NCBI GenBank assembly: GCA_963708295.1
Contig: CAVPSJ010000004.1
Span: forward strand, 960,001-1,024,000
Direction of reading: 5' to 3'
DNA length: 64,000 bases
Source of the DNA: an uncultured delta proteobacterium
GTDB lineage: Bacteria; Desulfobacterota; BSN033; UBA1163
In this document: piece after piece, positions 8,567-28,114 of the stretch
Numbering within the stretch: position 1 is the first letter of the stretch
How the letters are laid out: every line of letters begins with the position of its first letter
Notes under the pieces: model-generated
Database searches by the model: none
What the model was told of the DNA's origin: nothing
What the model saw: only the letters and a program-made list of their open reading frames with translations
Position numbers and translations under genes: made by a program

Positions 8567-9012
8567 TCAACATGCGATGATCTTACTCGTTGTCTTGTTC
8601 TGAAGATGCTGAGCAAGAGTCTTTTTCGAATAACGGAAAAAGAGAGCGTTTCTTCTCGGAGACGAATATGGCCTCGTAGCCCTTTCTTGCCTCATTCACA
8701 GCAGCAGAAGAGGCGTCTTCGGATTCTACGGAAAGGATCTCCAGGCCGATTCCTTGCTGCCGGGCTCTGTCCATCAACATCGTTGCTTTCACCTGCGCGC
8801 GCTCTAAGACTTCATCCCGGATATGGAGCAGAAATTGCCGCTTCGAAGGCCGCGTTGCGATAACATCGTGATGACCGTAATGATACAGATTGGAAGTCAG
8901 GATCTGCAGGACAGTCAATGCTCTTCGATGTTGATTTGGCGTAGCTGAATGCAGACTCTTCTGCCCTGCCGTTGTCGTCACCCGTTAAAATGAGGAGGAC
9001 TTTGTTTTCCAT
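8567..9012 (-). CDS. Universal-stress-protein-like protein (two apparent frameshifts)
   Basis: Joined frames: MENKVLLILTG..AEESAFSYAK..ALTVLQIL..ARQQGIGLEILSVESED..GYEAIFVS..KTLAQHLQNKTTSKIIAC; USP-like fold pattern, next to YeiH. Confidence 0.6.
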
Positions 9013-9026
9013 CTGAACCCATGATC

Positions 9027-9197
9027 TTAATACAGGCCCATGGCCTGCAGAAACCAGAGAAATAAGACAGACCCTACGCCCAGGATAATGGCAATGTACT
9101 CGTCAAGCCGATGGCGCAACTGCTTTGCCGCTGATTCTCTTTCCACTTTCTGGAGATCGGCATCCACCGTCTTTTCCTGACTCAATATTTCCGCCAT
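9027..9197 (-). CDS. Small single-TM membrane protein (56 aa)
   Basis: RBS AAGGAG; MAEILSQEKTVDADLQKVERESAAKQLRHRLDEYIAIILGVGSVLFLWFLQAMGLY; below the ORF-track cutoff. Confidence 0.7.
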   Translation of the reverse strand: MAEILSQEKTVDADLQKVERESAAKQLRHRLDEYIAIILGVGSVLFLWFLQAMGLY

Positions 9198-9215
9198 AAA
9201 GATTCTCCTTCCCGC

Positions 9216-10376
9216 CTACTTAAAGATTCCCATCTTTGTCAGGATCAGGATGAACGCCAGACAGACGCCCACCCTCATGACACCCGGCAACGTATCCAAT
9301 CAGGATGCCCTTTGCCCCTGCCTTCTTCATATCCCCCAACCTCGTCTGCAGTCCGAGGCCGACAAAGCAGAGGGTGAAAAACCAGTTCATCACCTTCTCC
9401 ATGGCCTCACTGGCGGGCACCGGCCACAGGTGAAGGCAGTTGCCGATCCAGACGATCATGAAACCGAAGACAAAGATGGGAAACTTGTCTTTGAGAACCT
9501 GCCACACGTTGATCTTCGGTTGAGCGAAATTCCTGGGTCAGCGTCATGAAATAGACAAAGAGGACCCCGGCGGGAATCAATACCACCCTCCCGATATTCG
9601 CAAAGCCGGCCACCTTCCCCGCTGCAAAACTGAAGTTAAACCCGGTTGCAATCACCTGATTGGAATTCGGAACGCCCGCAGCGCACAGAATACCGAAGGC
9701 GTAATTCGAAAGGTCAAGAAGTCGTCGCAAAAAAAGGGAGCCCGAAGAGACAGAGAAAACCAAAGGTGACCGACACGGCGATGGCATAGGCCACCTCTTC
9801 GCTCTTGGCTCTCACCATCGGGGCGATGGCGACACAGGCTGACACGCCGCACATGGAAAAGGCGGCCGACAGGAGGGCGGTCAAGCTGGTCCCCAGCTTG
9901 AAGTAGCGGCCCAGGAAGATGAAGATGAGCGCTCCCCCGAAGACCATCACCACCATGAGCAGGATACTGACGAGCCCCAGCTTCACCAGATCACTCAGCA
10001 TGTACTGAGATCCCAGCATGATGATTCCGACATTCATGAAGACGCCCGTGTAGCTCAAACCGGGCTCCCAGCTCCTGGGAACCCCGAACACGTTCCGGAT
10101 CAAGATCCCAACGGTTAATCCGATAACCACATAGTTGAAATGAAGAAGATCGACAAAGAGACCCTTTGTGTAGATGGGCGGCAGAACGGCGTCGATGTAT
10201 TTCAAGAGGGCCTCGACGGTAAAGGGCCATGGAATTCCCGGAACGCCGCAGAAGATAGCTATGACAATAAGGGCAATCAACCCGGGCAGACTCTGCCGGA
10301 AAGTCGGCAAGGCGCTCCACATACTGATCTTGCGCGTAAGCGCTGAATCACTGGTTGTCACCGTTCCGTTCGTCAT
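9216..10376 (-). CDS. YeiH/putative sulfate exporter family transporter (frameshifts near 9730, 9525, 9285)
   Basis: GIIMLG, FSMCGVSACVAIAP, QVIATG, KFPIFVFGF, FTLCFVGLGLQT motifs distributed over successive frames. Confidence 0.85.
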
Positions 10377-10403: not shown

Positions 10404-13253
10404 TTACTTCAGCCTCCATACTTCCCGGTAGGACAATCGCTTGAGCAGTGTCTTGCGGAGAAACGTTTCCGTTGTTCCGTTGACGCCCACCATCACATCC
10501 AGGTTTTTCCGCGGGTACTCCGCCAGATTGGCGGTCTTCATCCCGGTCCGGTCCTCGATATGCCAGGCATTGATCTTTTCCCCGTCGAAATCGTCAACAA
10601 CGATCTTGAAATATCCATTTGGCCCGGTATACGTATTGTTCTTCTCGTCCAGTATAATGGGCTTCCCGTTGTCGAGGATCAATTCGTTGAGCATGTAACA
10701 GTGGCCGCAGACCTCCGGCCTCACCACGAACCGCGGATCATCCGGCCAGGGTTTGTCTCGTTGAAGTTTCTTGATACCCGATGCAGCATAAAGAGGAACC
10801 TTTCCACCGGAGAAGTCGGACGATAGATCCAGCTCCACATGGACATCGTCATGCTGAAGCATAACCTTTTGCTGGGATTCGCTGTGCTGCGGAAGGGTAT
10901 CAAGAAGCTCTTTCGTCAGGGGCCCAAGGCTCTTTTCGACTGCCATCTTGCCTTTTGAATCGATAAGGATTAGTTTTGCCTTCTTGGTTGCCGGATCAAC
11001 GGCCGCGATTCTCAGCCGGTACTTCCCCAATTCGGTCTCCTCTCCGGCCTTCATGGCGAGCTGCCGGGGTTCTTCGTAGGAAATCGTAAAGGAATCCATA
11101 CCCGGGGTCCCCATCTCCGCCACCTCCACATAGTCCGGACTGACCCACTTGGGTATCAGATAGGTTGCCCCCTCGGCAAACACCTCCGGAAGAGAATACT
11201 TCTCCTCCATCGATGAGGAGGAAGAAGTTGAGTTGGAAGCCACGGGAGAATCGGAATACCCCCGGAATCCCGGAGCAACGATAATATTCGAACCCCAGGG
11301 GTTCCCGGAGTATTTGACCACCCGCAACACCCCGACAGGACGTCCCATCAGAATGGAAGATTCGATATACCGCAAGGCCTTGCTTCCGTCTCCCAGAGGC
11401 ACATCCTGCCAGAAAAGAAGATTCCCGTCTCCCATGGGCATCTCCTTCCACAGATCGATCCGGAAATTCTTCTTGACGACGAGGTAGCTCTCGGTGCTCA
11501 TCAGGTAGGCCTTCTTCCCGAGAACATAAAATGCTTCCCCCGCCAGGGGCCGGATGTTTCTTCCGTTGCGGCTCGTATAGTAGAGGCCTCCCGGAGGGAT
11601 GATGATCTGCCTCTTCCTGTAATCCACATAGCTTGCTCGGATCACGATCGCCTCCGAAGAGACAAGCTTTTCTCCTTTCCGGTTCTGGATGAACTGACGA
11701 ACGAGCCCTTTCATCTTCGGAACAAAAGCGCAGTCAGGATCAGGAGCAAACCACTTGGCCGACGGGATGACCGGCGGATAAGAGGTAAACTTCGACTTGA
11801 CCACTGGAATACCATAGGTCGGATCGGCCAGACGCTGAAGAAACGTATCTTCCATGACCGAGACAACGAGCTCGCTCATTCCGATGAAGAAATCGATATT
11901 CTCTCTCCCCTCTTTCCAGAGGATGAGATTATCGGTCCGGCGGAAGAAGGAGTCCCGCACATAGCAGCTCTTCACCACCTCATTCTCGATTTTGCCGACC
12001 ACGAGATTGAAATATTTTCTGTCCCACACGTCCGAGATCTTGATGGGACCGGCATAAGTTGTCTTTTCCCCAGTCAACTCAAAGGGTTCCCTGTTTTCAA
12101 GGACCACCCGCTTCAGCATTCCTGTCATCAAGTGCGGTTCGAGCCGGACGAGGTAACGGTTGTCTCTGGGCCATGGGTCGCCGTCCTTCAGTTTGACGAG
12201 ATCATGATAGATCATGAAAGAGATCGTTCCTTCCTTCCATCCGTAAGGAACATCGTTGGCCCAGGGAGCATAATCGGACCCCTTATACCAGGATGGATCG
12301 ACGACCAGTTCGATGTGCATATCCAGATCGAAAAGGGTCAGGCCCATCTTCTCCTGTTCTTCGAGCTTGTATTGCTGCTGGGTTGCCGGGACGAGAAGCT
12401 TTGACGCCAGTACCTTCCTGCCTGTCCAGTTGCGAACCTCCACCAGGATTCCGTTCTCCTTCCGGAAAGCATAGATCCTCTTGTTCCGCCACCAGCGGTA
12501 GCTTTCCTGCCGAACCTGTACCACGTAGGGCCGGTCCAGTGAAAAGACAGCCTCCGGGATGGTGGGATACTCGATCTTCGAAAAATGAGCCTCCTCGTGC
12601 GTGACTTTCTTTGCCTGGAACCGGGTCAACCCGTAAAGGGCAATACTGGAGAGAAAGAACTCCTTCTGCTGGGGATTGATCCCTTCTTTCACCTTCAACG
12701 CGTTCAATTTCACCGGCTCGGGAAAGGACGTGGAGACGGGCAATTCGATCTGCCAGCCTCCCGAAGGGGGCAGCAGCGCGAACTCCCCATAGGGTTTCCC
12801 GTAGTGGTCCGTGGCATATTCGTACCAGATCCGATATCCGGACGGATCGATAAGTCTCTTCCCTCCCTTTTTCACCCTCACGTCTGTTTTCGTGGCTGAA
12901 GAGGGTCTCAAGCTGAGGAGATACGCCTCCTCGCCGAGGATCAGGAACGGATCTCTCATCAGAGGCCTGGCGTCCTCCGAGGTACTCGAGGCATAGAAAA
13001 GTCCTCCTGCCGGCACATGGACCTTTCCTTCTTTCACAGAACTGCCGCGGAGGACAACACATTCGGCAAGATCCTTTTTCTGACCGTAATGATTATGCAT
13101 CGTCTTGTTTAACAAACCACCCAGCTTCGGGATGTACGTCGCCTGGTCTGACGGAGGCAATCCCCGGGAACTGTCCTCTCCCGTTGATGGAGAGGCGATC
13201 AGAAAGATCAGAAGGATTGTTGCGAAATGTAGAAACCCCCTTTTGCTCATCAT
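10404..13253 (-). CDS. Secreted 949-aa protein with internal tandem duplication and a CGHC motif
   Basis: Signal peptide MMSKRGFLHFATILLIFLIASPSTG; two homologous halves; VCGHCY at 10698-10709. Confidence 0.85.
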   Translation of the reverse strand: MMSKRGFLHFATILLIFLIASPSTGEDSSRGLPPSDQATYIPKLGGLLNKTMHNHYGQKKDLAECVVLRGSSVKEGKVHVPAGGLFYASSTSEDARPLMRDPFLILGEEAYLLSLRPSSATKTDVRVKKGGKRLIDPSGYRIWYEYATDHYGKPYGEFALLPPSGGWQIELPVSTSFPEPVKLNALKVKEGINPQQKEFFLSSIALYGLTRFQAKKVTHEEAHFSKIEYPTIPEAVFSLDRPYVVQVRQESYRWWRNKRIYAFRKENGILVEVRNWTGRKVLASKLLVPATQQQYKLEEQEKMGLTLFDLDMHIELVVDPSWYKGSDYAPWANDVPYGWKEGTISFMIYHDLVKLKDGDPWPRDNRYLVRLEPHLMTGMLKRVVLENREPFELTGEKTTYAGPIKISDVWDRKYFNLVVGKIENEVVKSCYVRDSFFRRTDNLILWKEGRENIDFFIGMSELVVSVMEDTFLQRLADPTYGIPVVKSKFTSYPPVIPSAKWFAPDPDCAFVPKMKGLVRQFIQNRKGEKLVSSEAIVIRASYVDYRKRQIIIPPGGLYYTSRNGRNIRPLAGEAFYVLGKKAYLMSTESYLVVKKNFRIDLWKEMPMGDGNLLFWQDVPLGDGSKALRYIESSILMGRPVGVLRVVKYSGNPWGSNIIVAPGFRGYSDSPVASNSTSSSSSMEEKYSLPEVFAEGATYLIPKWVSPDYVEVAEMGTPGMDSFTISYEEPRQLAMKAGEETELGKYRLRIAAVDPATKKAKLILIDSKGKMAVEKSLGPLTKELLDTLPQHSESQQKVMLQHDDVHVELDLSSDFSGGKVPLYAASGIKKLQRDKPWPDDPRFVVRPEVCGHCYMLNELILDNGKPIILDEKNNTYTGPNGYFKIVVDDFDGEKINAWHIEDRTGMKTANLAEYPRKNLDVMVGVNGTTETFLRKTLLKRLSYREVWRLK

Positions 13254-13322: not shown

Positions 13323-13658
13323 TCAGCAGGTGCAGTCTTTTCCTCCGATCCCTTCGAGGAGGAGAAAAGGCTTGATCCTCCTCAACAGATTCCGGTCAAA
13401 CCCATCCACCTGCAGAAGCTCTTCGAGAGTCTGGAAGTTGCCATTGTCCTTCCGGTACTTGACAATCTTCTTGGCAAGTTCGGGAGAGATTAACGGCACG
13501 CTCTTGACCAGCTCGTCTTCAGTCGCCTTGTTGATGTTGACTGTCTTTCCCTTCACAGGTTGTGATTTTTCCGGGGCTGCCGCATTCACGCCGCTGACTG
13601 TGAAGCAGACCCAAAGGGCTACGAAAAGCACCATCCATTGACGAGTCTTTCTACTCAT
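13323..13658 (-). CDS. Secreted ComEA-type helix-hairpin-helix protein with C-terminal DCTC tail
   Basis: RBS GGAGGT, signal peptide, VNINKATEDEL..LAKKIVKYRKDNGNFQTLEELLQVDG; ends GIGGKDCTC. Confidence 0.85.
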   Translation of the reverse strand: MSRKTRQWMVLFVALWVCFTVSGVNAAAPEKSQPVKGKTVNINKATEDELVKSVPLISPELAKKIVKYRKDNGNFQTLEELLQVDGFDRNLLRRIKPFLLLEGIGGKDCTC

Positions 13659-13825
13659 AGAACTACCTCCCACAAAATAGAGTCTGTTCACAAATTGCCG
13701 CATCGGTCGAATCGTCATTCCGGCCCCGTATCAAGTACGGGGCAGGCTCCTCAGGTCCAGAAGGCATGACTGAAGAGGCTGTCTATGGCCAGACACTAAA
13801 TCTTAAGTTAACAGTTGCTTTCCTC

Positions 13826-14731
13826 TCATAGGGCTCCCTGACCGGCAAAAACAAGAACGAACCGGAGCAGAAACCCTCCAACCAGCGCCGATGCGAAGAG
13901 GGGCCACGCCCTGTTCACTTCTATCGCCTGCCGCCTCATCACGAGGGCCCAGGGCACAACCATGCCGATACCGATCGCCCCAACCCACCAGATCAGGCCA
14001 CTCCAGCCTGTCATCAGATGAATCGCTGCGGGCTTTGACGCCGGAGACAGGATCCTCGTCGCCCCGTACCCCAGAGCTACCAGAAGCAGGCATGGGAGAA
14101 TCACCCGGTAGCTTCTCTTCACGAACTGAAGGGGTCCCTTCATGGCATCGGCGTCCTTTTTTTCCACGAACAGGATTGCCAGCATCCCTCCTCCCGAAAA
14201 CCCGGTTGCCAGGGCAGACAGAAAAAAGAAGAGGGGCAGACTGAAGCCCCGCCAGAGAGGGGTTCCTGTGACGGAAAGCAGCACGCCTGTGTAGACCGAC
14301 ACGCCAAGGGCCAAGAGCGTCCCGACCCACCCGATCCTGCCCCGGATGTCCGTGCGCTCCCAGAGGGACAATGCACCGATTCCCGGCAGACGTTTCCTGA
14401 TAGGGGTCGGAATCCAGTATAAGGCAAAAGCAACGGACACAATCAAAAAGAGACTGAACAGCCATGCCCCGATAGACATGGGTGAATAGGGATTGAACAC
14501 GCTGACCGTCATCCAGAAACGAGACTTATATCCCAGATCAGCGATCAGCATCGCCATCCCGATCACAAGGGCGACAGGCGCCAGGAACAAAGACATCCGA
14601 GAACAGGATTCCCAGCCTTTTCCTTCGCGCCTTGAGGTCATTGCACCGAAACAAAAGCTGCCTGCCCCCAAGCCGGCGAAGAAGAGGTCCAGTACCACAG
14701 GAATCCCCCATGTGACCTCACTCATCGGCAT
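13826..14731 (-). CDS. NrfD/PsrC-family membrane anchor (quinol-interacting)
   Basis: WGIPVVLDLFFAGLGAG, DLG, SPMSIGAW, YTGVLL, GGFLLRF. Confidence 0.92.
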   Translation of the reverse strand: MPMSEVTWGIPVVLDLFFAGLGAGSFCFGAMTSRREGKGWESCSRMSLFLAPVALVIGMAMLIADLGYKSRFWMTVSVFNPYSPMSIGAWLFSLFLIVSVAFALYWIPTPIRKRLPGIGALSLWERTDIRGRIGWVGTLLALGVSVYTGVLLSVTGTPLWRGFSLPLFFFLSALATGFSGGGMLAILFVEKKDADAMKGPLQFVKRSYRVILPCLLLVALGYGATRILSPASKPAAIHLMTGWSGLIWWVGAIGIGMVVPWALVMRRQAIEVNRAWPLFASALVGGFLLRFVLVFAGQGAL

Positions 14732-15377
14732 CCCCCTGATTCTCTATCTTCCTCCACAGCCAGGCAAGCAATACTCCACCCGGAATGACTCCGCTCACCC
14801 ATTTCCAGGCCTGAAGCGATGTCGTCGTATTCAGTGGCACCGGCTCAGGCAACGCATAGTCTTCCGGTCTGCCTTCCAACGAGTACACCATGTGAAGACG
14901 TTCATTTCTTCCATAAGCTCCAAGATTTCCCCTTTTGTTTTGGTCAGGGTTATAGCTGAGCGCATCGGTTGTGCACTTGGCCACACACGCTGGCTCTTTC
15001 CCGCGGTCAATCCGTTGGATGCAGAAGCTGCATTTCCTCATCGTGTGTTGGGTCGGGCTCAATTTCGGCACGCCGAATGGGCACGCCTTGATGCAGTAGG
15101 CGCAGCCGATGCACCTGTTTCTCAGGTGTTCTACCACGCCGTCCGGCCTCTTCCGCAGCGCTCCCGCAGGACACGCTGAAACGCACGATGGATCATCACA
15201 GTGGAAGCATGCAGTCGATATGGAACGCAGCTTCGAATCTGGAAACCTGCTCGCAGTATGGCTCCTAACCCAGCGAAGCTGCACACCCGGCGGGGCATTA
15301 TTCTCCAGCTGGCAGGCCACCTCGCAGGAGTGACACCGGATGCACTTCTTAGAATCAAACAGAATTAATGGTTCCAT
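14718..15377 (-). CDS. 4x[4Fe-4S] electron-transfer subunit (PsrB/DmsB-like) with C-terminal TM helix
   Basis: CIRCHSCEVAC, CFHCDDPSCVSACP, CIGCAYCIKACP, KCSFC..PACVAKC; hydrophobic C-terminal segment. Confidence 0.92.
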   Translation of the reverse strand: MEPLILFDSKKCIRCHSCEVACQLENNAPPGVQLRWVRSHTASRFPDSKLRSISTACFHCDDPSCVSACPAGALRKRPDGVVEHLRNRCIGCAYCIKACPFGVPKLSPTQHTMRKCSFCIQRIDRGKEPACVAKCTTDALSYNPDQNKRGNLGAYGRNERLHMVYSLEGRPEDYALPEPVPLNTTTSLQAWKWVSGVIPGGVLLAWLWRKIENQGDADE

Positions 15378-15481
15378 CTCATCAATCAGGTTCAGGCTGA
15401 GGTTAAGGTTAAGGTTAAGAATTCCTCAAACCCCCCGGCAGCTCATTTCCACTGAATCTCGATGCTTAAGCTTTAGATGCT

Positions 15482-17692
15482 CTAAACCTCAGCCTTGACC
15501 TTAACCTTCTTCTCCTGTATCTTTTCTAGCCGGCACCCAAACCCATTGAACTGGGCTGACACTTCGTCCCAGTACCCCGGGATGATCGTATTAATTGATT
15601 CTCCTGCATTGCCCCGATAAGGGCTGGCTGGTTCCGGATGGGAGGGTGTCCAGACGACGCCGGGAAGGATCAACTCGCTCAGTCTCACCTTTCCAGCGAT
15701 TCTTCCCTTCTCCGTTTCGAGGATCGCCCGATCTCCATCCGCCAATGCAAGACCCTTCGCCGTCTCCGGATGAATATGAATCACGTTCTCTTCCGAAAAC
15801 TGGGCCATATAGGCCGACCAATTCGTATACGTCTGCTGCCAGTGCTGTACCACCTTTCCCTGGAGGAAGATTAACGGAAACCCCTTTGCCTCCGAGCCTT
15901 CCCCCTTCGGACTCCCTTGCGGTTCAGACCAGGAGATAGGACCCAGAATATCAGACCGCAGTTCCACCTTGCGGTCCCGGGTGAGAAACCGATCGTTCGG
16001 GTAGAGAGTGCCTCTCGTCCCGAGGTGGTCCGCCGAGGGACACGGCCAGGATATCCCCGTCGGATTTTTCTTCAGGCGGTCCAGCGTTAACCCTGTCCAG
16101 CTTGAAGATTTCTGTCTGAACATCTCATAGATCTCTTCCGTCGTTTCAAAGGATGGATATCTGCTTCCGGCGATCTTCTTCCCCAGGTCCCGGTAAAAAC
16201 GCCAGTCCTCCACTGTTTCTTCGGGCGGAGCAACGGCGCTTTCCCGCCACACCACCTGCCGCTGGGCACCGTACTGGGACCCCGAGCTTTCAAAGACCAT
16301 GGTTGCGGGGATCACAAGATGGGCGAGTTTGGCCTCCTCGTCCATGAAAAATCCGCGGTAGACGACCAGTTCCACTTTCTCGATCGCCTTCTTTACCCGG
16401 TTCGCGTCCGGGTAGCGCCTGTAGCTTGAATTGAGGAGAAGCACCTTCACCCGGCTGCGCTCCATATTGTAGAGAATCTTCCGGAATGTGAGACCCGGCG
16501 CAAGATCAGGAGCACGATATGTCTCCTCAAAAGCCTCACCGCCTCCGGGCTTTCCGGCCTGGACAGCCATCAATCCCTTCCCGTGCCCGGACAGCTGTCC
16601 CATGATGGCTTGAAGGGCAATGATCGCCCGGACGGTCTGGATCGAGTTGGTGTAGCGCGAGAGCGCTCCCCCCAGCCAGACCATGGTCGCCTTGCTCCCT
16701 GCAAGGCTCTCCGCAAAATCGACCATTCGCCGTCGAGAGATCCCGGTAATCTTTTCCACTTCTTCCGGGCTGTACCGCTCGGTTGCCCCGATGAGATCTT
16801 TAAAACCATTGACATATCTTTCTACATACTTTTCGTCGTACCGTTTCCCTTTGATCAGATGCCTGATGACGCCCAGAGCAAAAGCGCCATCGGTTCCCGG
16901 CCTCGGGGTCCACTGGTCATCGCAGTGACTGCTGGTCGGAGTCCTTCTTGGATCGACGTAGAGGACCTTGATCCCCTTGGCCCTCGCTCTGTCGATCCAC
17001 CGTACATATAAGGGATAAACCTCGGCAATATTGGCGCCCCACAAAACGAGACGATCCGAGTTCAATGCCTCATCCAGGGTCGTCGGGGTAATCGGGCTGC
17101 CCAGACAGAGCCGCAGCGCCGCTCCCGTGTTCCCAATGCAGGCATCTCCGGGATGGCAGATATCCGGCAACCCTGATAGATTCAGGGCCATCGTAGCAGC
17201 CAGCTCGCTTTCATGCGACTCCCACAGGGGTGCGAAGAGGACAACCTGATGGGCGTAGTCTTCGGGGGAATCTTCCTTGACCTTGAGGATCCGGCCGGCA
17301 ACGAGATCGATCGCCTCCTGATAGGAGATTCTTTTCCAGCCGTCGCCTTCTCGCTTGATAGGATACAGGAGCCGGTGAGGGCTGTACGTCAATTCCACCA
17401 TGGACTGGCCCTTCGGACACATTCCGCCTTGGGTCCAAGCGTTATCCGGATTTCCATAGACATTGATCACTCTTCCGTTTTTCACCTGCACCTTGGTCGT
17501 GCATCGGACCTGGCAGAACTGACAGCAGCCGTTGACTTCCGAATCAAACAGCTTTTCTTCCCGGGCGTCTGTGGAAGGATGCGCTTCCGTACAGAAAGCC
17601 AGGGGCGCCCCCAGGCCGCCCGCTGCCAGCGCACCCGCCTTCAGAAAATCCCGCCGGTTCATTCCGCTTACCGGCTCATCCTTTTTTCGCAT
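15482..17692 (-). CDS. Tat-exported Mo/W-bisPGD oxidoreductase catalytic subunit (DMSO reductase superfamily)
   Basis: Tat signal NRRDFLK; CCQFCQVRC..MCPKG Fe-S site; RLLYP, WGAN, PRPGTDG; probable metal-ligand Cys in HPGDACIG; likely start ATG 17692. Confidence 0.92.
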   Translation of the reverse strand: MRKKDEPVSGMNRRDFLKAGALAAGGLGAPLAFCTEAHPSTDAREEKLFDSEVNGCCQFCQVRCTTKVQVKNGRVINVYGNPDNAWTQGGMCPKGQSMVELTYSPHRLLYPIKREGDGWKRISYQEAIDLVAGRILKVKEDSPEDYAHQVVLFAPLWESHESELAATMALNLSGLPDICHPGDACIGNTGAALRLCLGSPITPTTLDEALNSDRLVLWGANIAEVYPLYVRWIDRARAKGIKVLYVDPRRTPTSSHCDDQWTPRPGTDGAFALGVIRHLIKGKRYDEKYVERYVNGFKDLIGATERYSPEEVEKITGISRRRMVDFAESLAGSKATMVWLGGALSRYTNSIQTVRAIIALQAIMGQLSGHGKGLMAVQAGKPGGGEAFEETYRAPDLAPGLTFRKILYNMERSRVKVLLLNSSYRRYPDANRVKKAIEKVELVVYRGFFMDEEAKLAHLVIPATMVFESSGSQYGAQRQVVWRESAVAPPEETVEDWRFYRDLGKKIAGSRYPSFETTEEIYEMFRQKSSSWTGLTLDRLKKNPTGISWPCPSADHLGTRGTLYPNDRFLTRDRKVELRSDILGPISWSEPQGSPKGEGSEAKGFPLIFLQGKVVQHWQQTYTNWSAYMAQFSEENVIHIHPETAKGLALADGDRAILETEKGRIAGKVRLSELILPGVVWTPSHPEPASPYRGNAGESINTIIPGYWDEVSAQFNGFGCRLEKIQEKKVKVKAEV

Positions 17693-19731
17693 ACGGTGAG
17701 TTCGGTTCGAACATTTCATACATGATCCGGCCTTCGAAGTTAGAAGGCGGAACCAGTCCAAACATGTGCATGATCGTTGGCATCACGTTCATCATATGGC
17801 CGTTCTTGGAGATATCGTTGTTCTTTCTGATGCCGGGGCCGGCTGCAATGAACGTGATCAGTGCATTCCCATGAAACCCTGTAAAATGTCTCCTCGGGTT
17901 GTCCCAGATCTCGCCATCACGGCCGAAACCGCCGAAGTTAATCTGGTAGAGCCCATCGTTCTTTTTCCCGGGCACCTTGATCCCGGATGAATCCCGATAG
18001 CCGCAGAATTGTACATCCCCGGCATACCAGCCATAGTCCCCCTTGTAAAGGTTTTCGACGCGGTCGGCGATATGGGTCCACTGCTGTCCTTCAGCATCTT
18101 TCACCTTCTTCAGCTCGGCAATGATGAAATCGCGCAGCTTTTCATATTCCGAAAACTCCACGATCCCGGTTGGTTCGCGATTCTTCAGATTGATAAAGAT
18201 GCCGGGGTTCCATCCGCTGTAGGCCTTTGTTCTGGACCAATCGATATCCTCGTAGTCATAGGTCCGTTTCTGGCCTTCCACCTCGGGTTTGACGTGAAGC
18301 AGTCCAAGCTGCATCAGCCAGGAATTGGGCTGAAAGTCTTTCTTCACCGCTCCCCATCCGTGGTCTGAGATCATCATGAAGATCGCGTCTTTCGGAAGCT
18401 CCTTCAGGATTCGCGCCAGCTCCTTATCGATATACTCCGTGAAATCGATCATGACTTTCCCGCCACCGTATTTCGCTTCGTATTCCGCGGACCAGTCAGG
18501 GTTGCCCTCGACGCGTGTCATGTTGTGGTTCAAACGGTCATAGGGCATATTCGAAAACCAGAAGAAGTCCCAGGGCTTGTTCTTCATCAACCACAGGACG
18601 ATATCGTCCTGTTCCCGCGTCGCATCATAGCAGTCCTCAATGAGGGTCTCCTCTTCCTGAACGTAAGCGACGAAGGACGAATAGTCGTATTCAAAGGGAA
18701 GGTTGGGCGTCCGGTAATAACCGAATGCATCGTAAACTTCCCTGGCGAGTGAGGCGGGATAGGTCCATCGGTCCGTGGGAACACAAGCCCCATCGAAAAA
18801 CACATCGATCGGTTCATGACGTTCAGGAGCGGTCGGATCCTGGAGAAGCCGATATCGGTAGAGTTGCAACTCCCCGTTGGCGGAATTGAGGCGCTCAGGT
18901 TTCCATTTGACAATTGCCCTTCGCCCGTTCGGGAACTGAATCGGCACATACTTCGACCACTCACCCTTTTTCAGCGTGAGTTTCACATCCTGATAGGCCA
19001 CCGTAACGGTATCTCCCGAATTGAGAGTGAGTTCCAGAGGGATCTTCATGTCTTTGAATTTGATGACGGTGGAGACCTTCCCGTTCTCGAATGTAATCTT
19101 TGTCTTGAGTGCGGATGCCGCCTTGTGCCTCTGCTGTGTGAAATAGACATGCCCCTTGCAATCGGCGCTATCTCCCAGACCGGGGGCACCTTTTCCCGAC
19201 ATCATAAAACCGCCCTTCAAACGTTCCGGAGGAAAAGACATGGCCGTGCCGCAGAGGCCGACCCTTACACCGCCCTCTGCCAGCATGAAGGGTACAGTAG
19301 CCGTGTGGAGTCTAAAGAGGCGGTTGATGCCCGAGGTCTGGTAGGCAACCTTGTCATAAAGCTGCCATGGATGGGACCCGAAGAAATTGTTCTGCCCCGG
19401 CCCTACGCCGGTGTTATAAGCGGCCCAGGCATCCACGGACATACCCCGGAAGATATTCTCGAACTCGCCGTAACTCCCCTGGCTCAGCAATTTCTTGAAG
19501 GTGGGCAACTTTCCCTGGTTTGCCCATTCGATAATATTTGCCATCTGGCAGGAATCGAGCCCCATGAGGACGATCTTGGGTTTCCGACCGCCTTTGAACC
19601 GCTCGCCTTGACCAGGTTGCCCTTCAGAAGACGCTCTCGCTCAACCCGACGATCGACGCACCGACCAGCCCACCGGCGATCGTCTTCAGCGCGTTGCGTC
19701 TTGACAGGTCTTTCTTGCTTGTATCATCCAT
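17676..19731 (-). CDS. Tat-exported alkaline-phosphatase-superfamily (NPP/phosphodiesterase-like) hydrolase, frameshift near 19640
   Basis: MDDTSKKDLSRRNALK Tat leader joins ARA/SSEG..KIVLMGLDS; GMSVDAW..TG, DRLNH, SDHG, GFHG, DIDWSRTKAY. Confidence 0.85.
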
Positions 19732-20039
19732 CTCGGTTTGTCTCCTTTCGGTGGCGCCCTGCGAAGAGTCTCTCACTCCGTTGCGGTCGGGGAAGAAGGT
19801 AACAGGAAATTTCCAAATATGTCTTCTGACAAAAAAAGTCTGACAAATTCGTTCCCAGCATTCTCTGAAGACCCAAAAAGGCATCATGCTGAACTCCGAT
19901 TATTCACGTTCATTCATCACTAAGTGTCAGCATCTCACCAACTGGACCCATTTGTCCTTCGGATGAGATCCCGGATCGGCGTCCGGGATGACAGGTCTCG
20001 GATAACATGACGGGTCTATGGAATTTCAGATATGTTTAT

Positions 20040-20414
20040 TCAACACTTCGACGGTTTCAAATCCGGTTCGTCATCGTCATCCGCAGGAGTGATATAAAGC
20101 GACCCCTTCTCCATTTTCGGATTGAGTTTGTTGAAGAGTTCTTTGTTCATCCCTTTCACTTTCATCAAATCCTCGGGACTCTTGAAAGGACCTGACTTCT
20201 CCCGATATTCCACAATGCCTTTCGCAAGCGTGGCGCTGATACCGCATTTGGTCAACTGGTCAGCGGTCGCTTTGTTCACGTCGATCTTTGTCGCCTCAGG
20301 TGCCTTCGCAGGCGGCTTGGCAGGCGTTTTCGTTTGAGCAATCCCTATGCCCCCGATCACGAATGCCATTCCGAGGACCATAATTAAAACAAACATCCCC
20401 ACACTTTTTTTCAT
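20040..20414 (-). CDS. Second secreted ComEA-type HhH protein with acidic linker and C-terminal Cys
   Basis: Signal peptide; IDVNKATADQL..LAKGIVEYREKSGPFKSPEDLMKVKG; ends ADDDDEPDLKPSKC. Confidence 0.85.
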   Translation of the reverse strand: MKKSVGMFVLIMVLGMAFVIGGIGIAQTKTPAKPPAKAPEATKIDVNKATADQLTKCGISATLAKGIVEYREKSGPFKSPEDLMKVKGMNKELFNKLNPKMEKGSLYITPADDDDEPDLKPSKC

Positions 20415-20605
20415 TTCCAATGACCTCCTTTTGTCGCATCTGCATCAAATAAAAGAAAAGCCTCTTATCTCCCTCTCCCCTGGCGGGAGAGGGCGGGGGT
20501 GAGGGGGGACGTAGCGTTTCCACCCCCACCTCAATCCTCCCCCGTCGAGGGGGAGGAGGACTACCAGATATTCTCATGGTTTGTGGGCGCCCTTGGCATG
20601 GGGCA

Positions 20606-21104
20606 TCAGTAAGCCGAAAGACCTGCGGTCGAAATGTCGATATTGAACCAGTCATTGAGATACCCGATCCACTTGGCCCGGTTGCCTGTACGGGCCTTCA
20701 CGGCCGTCTCTTTGTCCGAACCCGCGAAGATCAGGACCTTCTGGCCTTCTCTCCAGACGTTCTCCTTGAGATACATCCTGGCGTTTCCCGGTTTGCTTAC
20801 CCATTCCAGTTCTTCCTTGGTGAGCAGCTGCTTCACGATGTCGCCAAGGCCGCCGGGTTCATTCGGCCCTCCAAGGATTACAATCAATTTCTCTTTCTTG
20901 TTCGCCTCAAATTCGGCTCGGTATTGTCTGTTTGTATGGCACAGATTCGTTCTTCAGGAACTCAAACCAATTCTCCGACAGTCGATATCCATCTTGATTG
21001 GCAACAACGGTCAAGCGCAACTCCTGGCCCATCGCCTGAAAGGCGAATAACACACAAAGACCTATTCCGCCGATGACGATGAATACTCCTTTGACTCGTT
21101 TCAT
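20606..21104 (-). CDS. Secreted hypothetical protein ending GLSAY (frameshift near 20910)
   Basis: RBS GGAGG, MKRVKGVFIVIGG signal; joined frames contain IVILGGP and VLIFAGSDKET; first gene after the sigma54 promoter. Confidence 0.75.
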
Positions 21105-21218
21105 CTTTCCTCCGTGTGCAATCTTCTTGGTTATCTCGCGCTCACTTGGGGCTGTACTTTCTTCACTTATTTTTTTGTTGAGATTCCTCGCCTCCTGAAC
21201 TCTGTTCCTCTTCAAGAT

Positions 21219-21234
21219 TGCAACCCTTGTGCCA
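21219..21234 (-). promoter_or_regulatory. sigma54 promoter of the HhH/AlkP/Mo-enzyme operon
   Basis: Minus strand TGGCACAAGGGTTGCA (GG-N10-GC). Confidence 0.85.
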
Positions 21235-21319
21235 TGATCCAATGAATGACTAACTGTTCAGTTTTATTTGCGTATTTCTCTTTGAGCCCGAGAATCATAC
21301 GCAAATACACCCTCCTGTT

Positions 21320-21400: not shown

Positions 21401-22771
21401 TCATTGGAGGGAAGATGTGTCCAGATTGTACTGGGCCAGCTTGTCGTAGAAGGCGCGGCGGCTGATTCCAAGAAGCTGGGCGGCCTGACTGCGGTTGTTG
21501 TTCGCGGCTTTCAGGGCTTGAACGATCGCCTTCCTTTCAGCCTCTTCAACAACCTGCCTGAGTAGCAGAGGAGGAGTGTCCGTCATGCCGGTTCTTTCCG
21601 CAGGACGGCAGTCGACGTTCAGGCAATCGAGGGTAAGGGTCTCATTTTCCGCCAGAAGCACCCCCCGCTCAAGAATATTGCCCAGCTCCCTGATATTTCC
21701 CTTCCACGGAGAGTTGCTCATTGCCTCCAGGACGTTGGGTTTAATGCTGCTGATCTTCTTCTTGTACATCTTGCAAAACTTATTCAGGAAGTGATCGATC
21801 AGCAAGGGGATATCCTCTTGACGTTCTCTCAGGGGAGGAAGATAAAGAGGCACAACTGCCAGGCGGTAATAGAGGTCTTCTCGGAATTCGCCTTCCTCGA
21901 TGGCCTTTCTAAGGTCGCGATTCGTCGCCGAGATAAAGCGGACATCGATCTGAATAGTAGAATTCCCGCCGACAGGCCGAATCTCTCTTTCCTGAATGGC
22001 CCGGAGCAGCTTTACCTGGGTGGAGGGTTTGATGTCGGATATTTCATCGAGGAAGACCGTGCCTCCCTGGGCTTCCTCCAGAAGTCCCCGTTTGGCCTTG
22101 ATCGCACCCGTAAACGCTCCTTTCACATGGCCGAAGAGTTCGCTCTCAAGAAGCGTCTCCGTCAGGGCGCCGCAATCGATGGGCATCAAGGGGCGGTCTC
22201 TTCGGGAACTGTTCTGGTGAATGAGGCGGGCGAGGAGCTCTTTTCCCGTGCCGCTCTCTCCCTGGATGAGCACAGAGGCCTGAGAATCGGAGATCTTTTC
22301 CACCCGTCTCATCAGGTCGTGCATCGACTTGCTCGACCCGATCACCATCTTCGGATAACGGTCCTCTTCCTCCTGAAGGCGCAGGGGGGTCAGCTTCCGG
22401 TTCAGCTTTCCGTATTCGAGGGCCCTCCGCACAAGGATCTCCATGTCTCTGAGCTTGAAGGGCTTCGTGATATAGTGAAAGGCCCCGAGTTTGATCGCCT
22501 CCACAGCGGTTTCAATCGTTCCCACGCCCGTCAGGATAATAAACGGAAGCGTGGCATCGCTCGCTCGGACCCGTTCCAGCAACTCCAGACCGGTCAAGTC
22601 CTCCATCGCCAGATCGGAGATGACCAGATCGAACATCGTTTCTTCAATGGCCCGCCAACCCTGTTCCCCTGACTCCGCCTCTCTGACTTGATAGTTCAGG
22701 CGCGTCAGGAACCGGGACAAGGCCTGCCTCATCTCCGCTTCGTCCTCGACGATCAGAATCTTTTCAGACAA
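21401..22771 (-). CDS. sigma54-dependent response regulator (NtrC family bEBP)
   Basis: REC domain, [38 protein letters not shown], Fis-HTH; start uncertain (TTG 22771 or 22807). Confidence 0.95.
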
Positions 22772-22884
22772 TTCCGGATCTCCGTTCGTATTCCCAAAAC
22801 AAGACAATGGAATAATAAACGCTCACGTAGCAAAAAGCCAGCCCTACGAACCCGGCGAGGATGTGATCAAGAGGGCTGCTGGAC

Positions 22885-24237
22885 TCACCTTGAGAGTACA
22901 TCAAAAGAGTTCAGGACCTTACCTTCAGGGAGGCGGGGATCCGGTGCGATGAAGGAGATTTTTACCCGGTCTTCGGAGACGTCCGCCCAGGTGTATCCCG
23001 AGGGCGTCCAGTACTTCTTATATGCGGTCACAGATTCAGGAAACTTCCAGGGCGCGCCTGCGCTTCCCACGCAAATATAATGAATTCCATCCACCTCGAC
23101 GTCAGTAAAGACATGATCATGCCCGTAAAAAAAAGCCTGGACGCCGAACTGCTTCATCCATCCATGAAGGATGGCCTGCTCCCCTATTTGGGCGGCCTGC
23201 CCCCCGCCTCGCCCGTAGCGGGAGTTGACTTCATCGCCGGCCTTCCCGGCAACGGTATGATGGGCCAGCAGAAACTTCCATCGTGCCTTCGATTTCGAAA
23301 GCTGTTCGAAGAGCCACTTTTTCTGCTTTTCGCCGAGTGTCCAGTCATCCGCCTTTCCAACAGGAGACCCGAGCCCATGATCCAATGGGGTGTACCCTGT
23401 GACGTTCAGGACCAGGAAAAGGACATCCCCCCATGTGAACCCGTAGTAGTCCTGGTCTTCGTTTCCCCCTTCAGGGTAGGTGTCGGAACCCGGATTAGGA
23501 ATAAAGGACTTACGGGCTTGCCTGGCCCATCCCCGCTCCCGCGCAGGGTGCCACCCATTTTCCCCCTCCCAGTTTCCATTGACCAGAAATGTCGGGACGG
23601 ATGAGGGAAGCGTTCCCAGGCCGCGCCTTAACAGCGAATAGAGCTGAGAACCGAATCTCTCCTCCGTCATCGGCCCCCCATGGGAGGTGAAGGTCTGGAT
23701 ATTGTCTCCGAGCATGAAGAAAAGATCCGGCTTTCGAGCAAGAATGGATGAACCCGCCTGAGAAATGATCTCGAAGCGGTCCCGGTCGAAGGGCGTAATG
23801 TGTGAATCAGAAATGAGCGCGAACGAAAAAGCAGAAGGCCCCGACTTCTGAGACCTGAATCTCTCTTCGGCCACCTTTTCGAACTCCCTGCCATCCTTCA
23901 AACGGGCGTAGACCTGATAGAGGTATGTGTTATCAGGCGTAAGGGATTCAAGCTTGATCTCAGCAGCGGAAAGGGCCCGGATGGGGACCTCTCTGGTTTT
24001 TTGCCATGACGCTGCGTCCGATAGCCCTTCTTTCCTGTATGCCACGTAGCAGACAATCTCTTTTTCACCCGCCATCAGGTTGAGCGTCACTGAGGATGGC
24101 GTGGGCCTGCCCAGATAAGGCGCTAAGGGAAGTAACGGAGATCCTGAACTTTGACAGAGGATTATCTGAGGCAACAAACAAACAAGGAAAACCAGGAGGG
24201 AAACAAAAACAGATTTTCCCGCAGCACCTTTCATCAC
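22885..24237 (-). CDS. Secreted metallophosphoesterase (purple-acid-phosphatase-like)
   Basis: Signal peptide; SDSH, GDN, GNWE, AHH, GHDH motifs. Confidence 0.85.
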   Translation of the reverse strand: MMKGAAGKSVFVSLLVFLVCLLPQIILCQSSGSPLLPLAPYLGRPTPSSVTLNLMAGEKEIVCYVAYRKEGLSDAASWQKTREVPIRALSAAEIKLESLTPDNTYLYQVYARLKDGREFEKVAEERFRSQKSGPSAFSFALISDSHITPFDRDRFEIISQAGSSILARKPDLFFMLGDNIQTFTSHGGPMTEERFGSQLYSLLRRGLGTLPSSVPTFLVNGNWEGENGWHPARERGWARQARKSFIPNPGSDTYPEGGNEDQDYYGFTWGDVLFLVLNVTGYTPLDHGLGSPVGKADDWTLGEKQKKWLFEQLSKSKARWKFLLAHHTVAGKAGDEVNSRYGRGGGQAAQIGEQAILHGWMKQFGVQAFFYGHDHVFTDVEVDGIHYICVGSAGAPWKFPESVTAYKKYWTPSGYTWADVSEDRVKISFIAPDPRLPEGKVLNSFDVLSR

Positions 24238-26715: not shown

Positions 26716-28114
26716 ATGCGAAAACAGATCGTAGTACTCACGGCTGCCGTTGTAGCAATTTTATTCCTTGGGGCGAACACCTCAGATGCCCTTGAACAAC
26801 TGGTGGGCCCGACCGGCGTGATCCGTTATTCCGGCGAAAAGGCACTCGACGGCTATACCTTGGTTTCTCCGGGCTCTTCAAAAACTTCTTACTTGTTGGA
26901 CATGGAAGGAAATGTCGTTCACAAATGGGTAACCCCATACACTCCTGGGCTTTACGCGGAACTTCTGCCCAATGGGAATCTCCTCAGAGGAGGGCGTCTC
27001 GACGGAGTTCCTGTGATGTTTGGGGGGTCTTCCGGGATCGTGCAGGAGATCGATTGGAACGGAAAGGTCGTCTGGGAATGGAAGGAGATGTCTCCCACGT
27101 ATGTTCAGCATCACTGTTTTTTCCGCATGCCCAACGGGAACACGTTGGTCCTTGGCTGGGAGTATAAGAGCAATGAAGAGGCCATTGCCAGGGGCCGCGA
27201 CCCCAAAACTCTTCTCTGGGATGGCTACCTCTACAATGGGATCGTCCACAAGGGCATCTGGCCGGATTATGTCAGGGAAGTGAGCAAGGAAGGCAAGGTC
27301 GTTTGGGAATGGCATGTCTGGGACCATATTCGGCAAGGGGCCTAACAAGATCGATATCAATTTCATATTGCCCCAGACCGACATGGTTTCGTACATGCGC
27401 GTTGCAGACTGGACTCATTACAACACCGTGGGCTACATCCCGGAGACCGATCAGATCATTCTCAATTCGCGGAATTTTGGCGAGTTCTATCTGATCAATC
27501 ACAAGACGGGCAAGATTGAATATCGATGGGGAAATCCCTGCGCTTATGGCAAGGGACGATGCCCCTCATGGATCGATGACGGCGACCAGCAACTCTTCGG
27601 TCCCCATCATGTCACCCGGCTGGACAACGGCAATTTTCTGATCTTCGATAACGGCTGGTTCCGGCCGGAGGGCAATCGTTCCCGCGTGCTCGAACTCGAT
27701 CCGAAGACCGACAAGGTCGTTTGGGAATACAAGCCCAAGATCGGAAACAGCTTCTTCTCCCGTTACCAGGGGGCGGCGCAGCGTCTGCCCAATGGCAATA
27801 CCCTCATCACGTCAAGCAGTCAGGGCCATGTCTTTGAAGTGACCGGCGGCAAGAACCCGGAAGTTGTCTGGGAATGGATTAATCCCGTCGTCGGTGATAA
27901 CGAGGCCAAATGCTTCCTGGAAGATTCGAAAGATATCCGAAGCGTCGTCGAGGAGGTCATGCTGACTACACTTCACCGCGCATACAGGTACGGCAAGGAC
28001 TACCCAGGCCTTGCGGGCAAAGATCTGACTAAGAAAGAGCCTCTGGCCAAGGGCTGCCTGGAGATGTGGAAGCATTACAGAGATTTTGAAGCCGCAACGA
28101 AGAAAGCGAAATAG
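26716..28114 (+). CDS. Periplasmic aryl-sulfate sulfotransferase (ASST family), frameshift near 27340
   Basis: Signal peptide; YLLDMEGNVVHKW, LPNGNLL, QHH, VVWEWHVWDH, DWTHYN, GPHH, FDNG, AQRLPNGNTLIT beta-propeller motifs. Confidence 0.88.

Follow-up and report, generated by a model that had tools for sequence, protein, structure and literature searches.

Secreted ComEA-like proteins with cysteine-tipped tails in a molybdoenzyme gene cluster: probable carrier or accessory proteins

The window analyzed here is a stretch of 64,000 nucleotides from an uncultured delta proteobacterium (assembly GCA_963708295.1, contig CAVPSJ010000004.1, positions 960,001 to 1,024,000), and our subject is two of its genes, HhH1 and HhH2, which encode small secreted helix-hairpin-helix (HhH) proteins resembling the competence protein ComEA. 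Both are best explained as founding members of two unnamed subfamilies of secreted proteins with a single HHH_3 domain. Their C-terminal tails are invariant and end in cysteine, their gene neighbourhood is conserved, they are separated from competence genes, and their hairpins are degenerate. The best reading is that they represent two new families of carrier or accessory proteins with a cysteine arm, which are probably engaged in sulfur transfer. It is highly probable that they are dedicated components of a system comprising a molybdenum enzyme, a 949-amino-acid (aa) protein (X949) and arylsulfotransferase (ASST) family proteins, and not competence proteins.

Cysteine-tipped tails and degenerate hairpins

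The longest open reading frame (ORF) of HhH1 spans positions 13323-13718 and its C-terminal end reads ...KPFLLLEGIGGKDCTC. The likely start is the ATG at 13658, which gives a protein of 111 aa, a length typical of most homologues. For HhH2, the longest ORF is 20040-20420, the C-terminal end reads ...YITPADDDDEPDLKPSKC, and the likely start is the ATG at 20414, which is preceded by AGGAGG. The two proteins are 34% identical across the HhH core, and both score well above the cut-off of 27 bits for Pfam HHH_3 (PF12836; Table 1). Read by eye, their N-termini show basic and hydrophobic stretches together with A-x-A-like sites (VNA/AAP and GIA/QTK). An earlier note on this DNA, made from the letters alone, had proposed a signal peptide and an HhH core for both proteins, with which these matches and N-termini agree. 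It had also foreseen that annotation pipelines would mistake them for ComEA. This is indeed what happens: the NCBIfam model TIGR00426 (“ComEA HhH repeat region”, cut-off 53.1 bits) is passed by HhH1 with 57.3 bits and by HhH2 with 54.6 bits, and homologues are named “competence protein ComEA” at the Joint Genome Institute. A search for longer, fused forms of HhH1 gave two matches among 265 candidates. P0221 is a multi-repeat HhH protein, and P0222, in which a kinase is joined abruptly to the last 39 HhH1 residues on a 1.8-kb contig, looks chimeric and was not used.

HhH1 ends in EGIGGKDCTC, and HhH2 in an acidic linker followed by EPDLKPSKC. The end CTC is present in 120 of 120 HhH1 homologues (the best 120 of 378), 94 of which carry EGIGGKDCTC, and KPSKC ends 99 of 100 HhH2 homologues, the remaining one ending in KPSKF. 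As that homologue search depends on words in common, genome loci were also collected by means of peptide patterns situated in the HhH core and not in the tail. Of the 29 loci fetched, 27 contain a family member (“L” denotes a locus and “G” a genome). All 27 HhH1-type ORFs of these loci end in C-x-C (25 CTC and two CGC) and 16 of the 18 HhH2-type ORFs end in PSKC, the other two being a third paralogue that ends in KLPRY. The generic HHH_3 proteins that the same fetch returned from L033 and L034 have no terminal cysteine. Divergent clusters found by way of X949 keep ...SPSKC (G199) and ...APSKC (G171), and that of G199 also has an end reading ...GCNC. In a library of 1.84 billion proteins (50%-identity representatives), single-domain family ends of the form C-[TSG]-C were found in 7 of 149 newly listed proteins and in P0081. 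Across 26 HhH1 genes the tail L-E-G-x-G-G-x-x-C-T-C is invariant in all 26, with TGC and TGT, all four threonine codons and all four glycine codons alternating synonymously; since the codons vary while the residues stay fixed, selection on this tail acts at the level of the protein. The conservation of the tails is far beyond chance. The earlier note had let its proposal hang on conservation of the terminal cysteine among syntenic homologues, and by these counts the cysteine is conserved.

In HhH1 the tail comes directly after the last helix and opens with a hydrophobic FLLLEG stretch, which is invariant or almost invariant. A GG hinge and two residues that vary, usually K-D or x-E, lead from there to C-T-C. 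Mature HhH1 contains exactly two cysteines, both in the CxC, in 120 of 120 homologues. In HhH2 the core is followed by a short beta-hairpin, KGxLYITP, then by an acidic tether of variable length and finally by the fixed tip EP(S/D)LKPSKC. The part of HhH2 beyond the first 62 mature residues comprises 19-27 residues, and the tether has an isoelectric point (pI) of 4.1. HhH2 has a single invariant cysteine, a second one being absent in 21 of 91 proteins. In the AlphaFold2 (AF2) model of HhH2 the predicted local distance difference test (pLDDT) score is 83-91 in the core and about 50 over residues 111-124, the last 14, so that the tail is modelled as disordered. Low pLDDT, a tether of variable length and an invariant tip are as expected of the flexible, cysteine-ended swinging arm that the earlier note had proposed.

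A third HhH paralogue, which is rare, lies upstream of HhH2 (L011:3260-3583, L013:3141-3443 and L043:3-299). It ends in an acidic stretch and KLPRY in 3 of 3 cases, with a terminal tyrosine (a phenol) where the others have cysteine. A metagenome scan for this paralogue returned 39 loci, of which one (L043) holds a true relative and 38 hold generic HHH_3 proteins.

Neither protein reaches the full-length ComEA model TIGR01259 (58.4 and 46.2 bits versus a cut-off of 152.35). A canonical ComEA is encoded in the same genome, on contig C1; it combines a membrane anchor and an SLBB-like part with two GIG hairpins (PGIG and RGIG), and it does not end in cysteine. The ComEC match of this genome is on contig C17, and the HhH locus is on C4. 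No competence gene is found near HhH1 or HhH2, nor among the conserved neighbours of the 27 loci; the setting is a redox gene cluster and not a competence locus, as the earlier note had stated. None of the four hairpins in HhH1 and HhH2 has the second glycine of the G-h-G motif, and the residues that stand in its place are conserved as well. The HhH1 hairpins are VPLISP and DGFDR (in the family PL(I)(S/T)P and G-F-(D/N)), and those of HhH2 are GISA and KGMNK (in the family G-(I/L)-(S/T) and G-(M/I/V)-(N/T)); ComEA chains carry GIG or GVG there. By sequence, the closest solved relatives are the ComEA chains 8dss and 8dfk and the HhH domains of EEPD1, and in a fold comparison the HhH2 core model resembles the HhH domains of Tex, ComEA and PsbU. 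The HhH cores are basic, with a median pI of 8.6 for HhH1 and 9.4 for the HhH2 core. The acidic linker, which the earlier note had held to argue against DNA binding, is in itself no argument next to a basic core; the missing second glycine is a better one.

A molybdoenzyme cluster with sulfur neighbours

Between HhH2 and HhH1 the window contains genes for an AlkP-superfamily protein, a molybdenum-bis(pyranopterin guanine dinucleotide) (Mo-bisPGD) subunit with a twin-arginine translocation (TAT) signal, a four-cluster ferredoxin (FeS) and an NrfD-type protein. All window genes discussed here are on the minus strand except ASST, which is on the plus strand. Neighbour counts (Table 1) were obtained by clustering all ORFs in the 27 loci, which fall into recurring layouts. 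Layout a is HhH2 - AlkP - (ASST) - Mo - FeS - NrfD - HhH1 - X949 - YeiH, and layout b is ASST - HhH2 - X949 - YeiH - 153-aa gene - Mo - HhH1 - FeS - cytochrome b or NrfD-multihaem fusion. In every locus that has Mo, HhH1 adjoins the Mo operon, with Mo or NrfD as the gene immediately before it. The gene that immediately follows HhH2 is X949 or AlkP, and an ASST gene often precedes HhH2. In L026 and L027, Mo-HhH1-FeS is present without X949, HhH2 or YeiH. From these two loci and the recurring layouts it follows that HhH1 travels with the Mo enzyme and HhH2 with X949, ASST or AlkP.

In L026 and L027, Mo-HhH1-FeS is preceded by genes for an ABC ATPase, an ABC-2 permease, a 735-aa GldG-like protein and a 351-aa protein, and the same four genes precede the HhH1-like genes of L031 and L032. 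L008:15161-19608 contains two tandem Mo subunit genes, 60% and 56% identical to that of the window, and the two HhH genes of this locus directly adjoin one another.

The cluster is rare and patchily distributed. X949 was found in 8 of 301 genomes sampled from its own phylum, in none of nine from its own family and in one of 201 in a sample of Acidobacteriota. Strong HhH1 matches occur in three of the 301 own-phylum genomes, all three among the eight that are positive for X949. Cluster carriers are dsr-bearing Desulfobacterota and Acidobacteriota from sediments, peat and groundwater.

With its TAT-exported bisPGD subunit bearing an FS0 cysteine motif and a cysteine ligand, its four-cluster ferredoxin and its membrane anchor, the enzyme has the make-up of a complex iron-sulfur molybdoenzyme (CISM). 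The ferredoxin gives NCBIfam DmsB, NrfC and FDH-beta-like matches, all below cut-off. The anchor can be exchanged: NrfD takes this place in the window, cytochrome b561 does so in L020:11067-11822, and an 1105-aa fusion of NrfD and a multihaem cytochrome in L025:11367-14684 and L023:3586-6924. In the Mo subunit, Cys80, Cys83, Cys87 and Cys115 (FS0) and Cys208 (the Mo ligand) are invariant in 23 of 23 sequences, as are Cys219 and Cys743; Cys202 is frequent (15 of 23). The best solved relatives of this subunit are formate dehydrogenases (FDHs; 7bkb_D, E 1.8e-61). Nevertheless FDH was rejected as an assignment, because the (Se)Cys-His dyad is replaced by Cys-Ile: the FDH segment “arichgps” aligns to “gdacignt”, which places Cys208-Ile at the dyad. 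The “MOLY cluster” of sulfur disproportionators, in the accessible part of its description, consists of MolyA, MolyB and a TorD-type chaperone without a membrane anchor (PMC12998232). Compared by that partial description, its architecture differs from that of the present cluster, and the two were not equated.

The genes dsrABNC lie directly downstream of the cluster in the window, and the ORFs at 2718-3644 and 1109-2737 may be candidates for dsrM and dsrK. In two Acidobacteriota genomes (G301, contig C13, and G305, contig C7) dsrAB is found about 4-6 kb from the cluster on the same contig, so that dsrAB adjoins the cluster or lies at about this distance in three genomes in all. DsrA scores above the curated cut-off in five of five cluster-bearing Acidobacteriota genomes versus 25 of 201 in the phylum sample; note that this sample includes one of the five cluster bearers and that kin are not independent. 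A further sulfur link is given by the ASST-family genes, which recur across the loci (Table 1).

Thiol arms and their alternatives

The tails of HhH1 and HhH2 may act as thiol arms, conveying between periplasmic enzymes a group that is bound covalently and is probably sulfur-based; we put this forward tentatively, at a little short of an even chance. SoxY, on which the Mo enzyme SoxCD acts, carries its intermediates on the cysteine of a C-terminal GGCGG, DsrC bears sulfur on an arm at its C-terminus, and in 3′-phosphoadenosine-5′-phosphosulfate (PAPS) reductase S-sulfocysteine forms on the C-terminal tail. The carrier model is drawn from these three cases. The HhH proteins would have been recruited from the ComEA/PsbU fold as dedicated periplasmic components of the cluster, which has two modules. 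One consists of the TAT-exported Mo-bisPGD subunit, the four-cluster ferredoxin, an exchangeable quinol or haem anchor and HhH1, and the other of HhH2, X949 and the YeiH-type transporter, usually flanked by ASST and in some lineages accompanied by the AlkP-like enzyme. The HhH core would serve as a small docking body and the C-terminal arm as the working part. In HhH1 this arm is a short glycine hinge ending in C-T-C, and in HhH2 a beta-hairpin and a length-variable acidic tether with the invariant tip LKPSKC. The terminal thiol or thiols would bind a small group covalently and present it to partner enzymes. The carried group would most plausibly be sulfur-based, either a sulfane or a sulfuryl held as S-sulfocysteine. 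HhH1 would serve the Mo active site, and HhH2 would serve ASST, X949 or the AlkP-like enzyme. Conserved periplasmic cysteines available for thiol chemistry are Cys65 and the CGHC of X949 and Cys219 and Cys743 of the Mo subunit.

With SoxY, HhH1 shares small size, a periplasmic location, a glycine-rich hinge and a C-terminal cysteine (GGCGG versus GG-x-x-C-T-C). An invariant cysteine on a glycine-hinged C-terminal arm of a periplasmic protein, as in SoxY-type carriers, is found here as G-G-x-x-C-T-C in 26 of 26 genes. SoxY has a Mo enzyme and hydrolases as partners, which act on a sulfur group bound to the carrier (PMC5336275). The present proteins differ in having an HhH fold where SoxY has a beta-sandwich (only HhH families were matched), in the absence of SoxZ and other Sox genes among their conserved neighbours, in a Mo partner of the bisPGD family and not of the sulfite oxidase family, and in their hosts, which are dsr-carrying anaerobes. 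DsrC/TusE resembles them in its flexible C-terminal arm with a cysteine at or beside the end, and dsr genes adjoin the cluster. The window DsrC ends in GLPKPTGCV, which resembles the HhH2 tip (S/D)LKPSKC; this likeness of about six residues may be due to chance and should be considered a lead only. DsrC is, however, cytoplasmic, belongs to the TIGR03342 fold family, and has its cysteine in the penultimate position with a second one ten residues upstream, whereas HhH2 has no TIGR03342 match and shares only the L-K-P-S-x-C-like tip. Sud is a periplasmic thiol protein that hands its sulfur substrate to a membrane-bound Mo-bisPGD/FeS/NrfD-type reductase of the Psr type, and HhH1 and HhH2 are likewise periplasmic thiol proteins beside a Mo-bisPGD/FeS/NrfD-type enzyme. 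Sud differs in its rhodanese fold and active-site loop cysteine, as opposed to an HhH fold and a terminal cysteine, and the present Mo enzyme is nearer FDH and Nas than Psr or Phs. ComEA shares with HhH1 and HhH2 the HhH fold, the Pfam family, small size, export, a basic core and the best PDB matches (8dss and 8dfk). It differs in its competence neighbours, its intact G-h-G motifs and the full-length model, and the cysteine-tipped extension of HhH1 and HhH2 is absent from the ComEA of the same genome and from the HHH_3 proteins of L033 and L034.

Complex prediction was run for the Mo subunit (residues 58-759) with HhH1 (residues 19-103). The score was 0.56 (0.56, 0.52 and 0.56 in individual runs), compared with 0.00 for the best of three controls; the runs share at least 71% of contacts, and the pLDDT of the partner is at least 75. 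The mark used was reached by 58 of 80 solved complexes and by two of 110 mismatched pairs. Scores that reached the mark yet stayed at 0.60 or less were obtained for only 7 of those 80 complexes but for both of the mismatches that passed. Because conserved adjacency made this pairing likely beforehand, the score is counted as modest support for binding of HhH1 to the Mo subunit. This modelling, one of the multimer tests that the earlier note had proposed, weakly supports binding, and the predicted complex gives no support for a tail that enters the active site.

Several points weigh against the carrier model. The complex prediction was made with the analysis's own alignments, and its verdict is “weak support”. 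The homologue lists derive from a word-based search, that of HhH1 being the best 120 of 378. The Mo subunit is nearer FDH and nitrate reductases than polysulfide and thiosulfate reductases (2vpw_A, E 2e-33). The HhH1-like genes at L031:9857-10225 and L032:9905-10213, whose products end in ...DCGC, have no Mo gene in the surrounding 10 kb. Rhodanese, TusA, DsrE and Sox genes are all missing from the conserved neighbours of the 27 loci, and dsrAB lies inside none of the fetched ±10 kb loci. The other 24 DsrA-positive genomes of the Acidobacteriota sample have no X949, so the dsr link runs in one direction and is confounded by kinship. The cores stay basic, a charge compatible with binding of nucleic acid. 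Finally, that carriage is covalent, that its chemistry is that of sulfur, and which enzyme each arm visits are points that we infer.

The strongest competing account treats HhH1 and HhH2 as structural, extrinsic subunits of the Mo enzyme and X949, comparable to PsbU and shuttling no substrate. The tail would then be a docking peptide, and its cysteine would ligate a metal or cofactor of the partner or form a disulfide tether to it (to the CGHC of X949, or to Cys219 or Cys743 of the Mo subunit). PsbU is a non-DNA-binding HHH_3 relative that serves as an extrinsic subunit of a redox complex on the outer membrane face, and its chains are matched by HhH profile A2 at E values from 8.5e-6 to 3.7e-3. 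PF06514 is among the precomputed assignments of several homologues and the HhH2 model aligns to PsbU chains, although these profile and fold matches are weak and HhH2 reaches 17 bits with the PsbU model NF002708 (cut-off 85). The place of HhH1 within the Mo operon, which in layout b is the gap separating Mo from FeS, is what one would expect of a subunit gene. The near-invariant FLLLEG ahead of its tip, the invariant cysteines of the partners and the complex score of 0.56 versus 0.00 suit a stable subunit as well as a carrier. On the other hand, there is no photosystem context here and PsbU is not known to have a cysteine-tipped tail. The variable tether and fixed tip of HhH2 suit a mobile arm better than a static dock, the nucleophile at the tip differs among the two or three paralogues (CTC, KC and Y), which hints at a chemical role for the final residue, and L031 and L032 retain the protein without a nearby Mo gene. 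We consider the structural role unlikely, though still a contender of some weight.

Two further accounts were considered. In one, the proteins would be metal(loid) or chalcogen chaperones. A soft ion used or produced by the Mo enzyme, for example As(III), Sb(III), Se, Cu(I) or Hg(II), would be bound by their cysteine tips and then passed on or sequestered in the periplasm. C-x-C is a known soft-metal ligand motif in ArsR and CCS, the CxC accounts for both cysteines of mature HhH1, and the Mo enzyme is not an FDH. Arsenate is a phosphate analogue, and some loci contain phosphate-ester enzymes (AlkP-like and metallophosphoesterase). Such chaperones are improbable: the conserved neighbours of the 27 loci include no resistance gene, whether ars, mer, cop or another, ArrA is only a distant match to the Mo subunit (6cz7_A, E 1.1e-12), the one invariant cysteine of HhH2 would make a poor chelator, and the ASST and dsr links favour sulfur. 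The other account, that of genuine ComEA-type receptors which bind extracellular or periplasmic DNA and take it up or feed it to the AlkP-like phosphodiesterase or the metallophosphoesterase for scavenging of phosphate or nucleotides, is very improbable indeed. It can call on the HHH_3 and TIGR00426 scores, on the basic cores, on ComEA and EEPD1 as nearest solved sequences and on the two phosphoesterase-type genes in the window. It is opposed by the TIGR01259 scores, by the second glycine missing from all four hairpins with invariant residues in its place, and by the canonical ComEA and ComEC elsewhere in the genome. Moreover, AlkP and the phosphoesterase occur in few of the 27 loci while the HhH proteins go with Mo and X949 throughout, and DNA binding does not explain the invariant terminal cysteine motifs.

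An extension of the carrier model, which we regard as rather improbable, is that the cluster forms a periplasmic, protein-tethered sulfuryl relay by which dsr-bearing anaerobes respire organic sulfate esters without ATP-dependent sulfate activation. ASST would transfer a sulfuryl group from an aryl sulfate to the nucleophile that ends an HhH protein (cysteine in HhH1 and HhH2, tyrosine in the KLPRY paralogue). The S-sulfocysteine arm would be presented to the Mo-bisPGD enzyme and cleaved reductively with quinol-derived electrons, as thiosulfate reductase acts on S-SO3. The freed sulfite would be imported via the YeiH-type transporter and reduced by DsrAB with DsrC. If true, the relay would be new in several respects: in its class of carrier, built on an HhH scaffold, in its type of CISM substrate, a thiosulfonate bound to protein, and in the way sulfite comes to enter dissimilatory reduction.

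Automatic annotation gives the name “ComEA” to thousands of small HHH_3 proteins, and the HhH1 and HhH2 families show that quite another function can lie behind it. Should the tails prove to be thiol arms, the scaffolds on which protein-bound sulfur is transferred (SoxY, DsrC and Sud) would come to include the HhH fold, and a substrate tethered to protein would be added to those of CISM-type molybdoenzymes. The cluster of Mo enzyme, X949, YeiH and ASST-family proteins is a conserved but unstudied module, and its function could show how such anaerobes use organic sulfur esters or other electron acceptors. In full-text literature, with most subscription journals outside its scope, no description of cysteine-tipped ComEA-like proteins or of an HhH subunit of a molybdoenzyme was found. 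What these families would add is a carrier or accessory protein with a C-terminal cysteine on a new scaffold, within an uncharacterised enzyme system.

Features of the window and neighbouring genes

Table 1. Genes discussed in the window, with the number of the 27 loci in which each family recurs
Feature	Position	Strand	Loci (of 27)	Description
HhH1	13323..13658	minus		secreted single-domain HHH_3 protein, “HhH-CxC” family, tail LLEGIGGKDCTC; Pfam HHH_3 70 bits
HhH2	20040..20414	minus		secreted single-domain HHH_3 protein, acidic tether and tip EP(D/S)LKPSKC; Pfam HHH_3 72 bits
Mo-bisPGD catalytic subunit, TAT signal	15482..17761 (probable start 17692 or 17662)	minus	24	Pfam Molybdopterin, Molydop_binding, Molybdop_Fe4S4, TAT_signal
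Four-cluster ferredoxin	14718..15377	minus	21	C-terminal hydrophobic segment; Pfam Fer4_11 and others
NrfD-type membrane anchor	13826..14731	minus	8	Pfam NrfD 128.8 bits
X949	10404..13253	minus	18	secreted 949-aa beta-rich protein; no Pfam, NCBIfam or PDB sequence match; internal duplication
YeiH-family (PF03601) membrane transporter	9220..10376	minus	19	3-4 frame pieces; Pfam 93 bits
ASST gene	26716..28114	plus	17 (31 ORFs)	two overlapping ORFs; tblastn 56-63% identity to L007 ASST
Conserved ~153-aa gene	8622..9009	minus	15	two frame pieces; tblastn; no Pfam match
Conserved secreted ~160-aa protein	20606..21242	minus	12	two frame pieces; no Pfam match
AlkP-superfamily protein	body 17676-19565; TAT signal peptide 19624-19731, in another frame	minus	6-7	weak Pfam Metalloenzyme and Sulfatase matches
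Sigma-54-type response regulator	21401-22807	minus	5	ORF
Secreted metallophosphoesterase	22885-24237	minus	4-5	450 aa; Pfam Metallophos, PhoD
Histidine kinase	24234-25028	minus		ORF
dsrA	7076-8218	minus		
dsrB	5898-6962	minus		
dsrN	4153-5616	minus		CobB/CobQ-type
dsrC	3756-4073	minus		ends GLPKPTGCV; sole TIGR03342 match in genome

In X949, Cys65 and C849-G-H-C852 are invariant in 19 of 19 sequences, and the CGHC is present in the second repeat only. C-G-H-C is the active-site sequence of protein disulfide isomerases; the fold around it in X949 is beta-rich and not thioredoxin-like. Comparison with solved structures by sequence gave 0 matches at E values up to 1, and a protein atlas search gave no usable match. 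The AF2 model of X949 is of low to middling quality (mean pLDDT 61.4). The fold that matches it best is 3u2g, a DUF1608 S-layer domain (Foldseek E 5.8e-6; Z 9.4 and root-mean-square deviation 2.6 over 91 residues), barely above rows resembling the beta-sandwich of class II fusion proteins (Z of 8.2 or less). This should be considered a hint of likeness to a DUF1608 S-layer domain over about 90 modelled residues, and no assignment was made.

The ASST-family proteins include L007:4725-6122, a paralogue in the same locus as the L007 ASST, which matches PF05935 and PF14269; family members also match a solved “sulfotransferase” chain. In its own genome ASST was found in a single place, at window positions 27380-27832. 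Orthologues of the AlkP-like protein are intact in seven loci, with 684-709 aa and a TAT signal. Against solved structures this protein gave only chance-level dihydrofolate reductase rows (E 0.31-0.88). The YeiH pieces were located at 9222-10352 by tblastn with the intact L007 orthologue. The response regulator, the histidine kinase and the phosphoesterase recur in some loci.

Five neighbours are split by frame changes in the window while their orthologues elsewhere are intact, namely YeiH, the 153-aa gene, the AlkP-like gene, the 160-aa gene and ASST. The regions concerned are 8622-10376, 17676-19731, 20606-21242 and 26716-28114. HhH1, HhH2, Mo, FeS, NrfD and X949 are whole. A contig from a related strain (run X2) shows several 1-base indels at 19580-19723, at a depth of only 4. 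The frame splits look like assembly indels rather than decay.

Just upstream of HhH2, window positions 20462-20575 are rich in G and C and have the character of an inverted repeat. This stretch has 42 matches in its own genome at 73-100% identity and, in metagenome contigs, coincides with a depth spike and many loose ends. It is a dispersed short repeat of the repetitive extragenic palindromic (REP) or miniature inverted-repeat transposable element (MITE) type.

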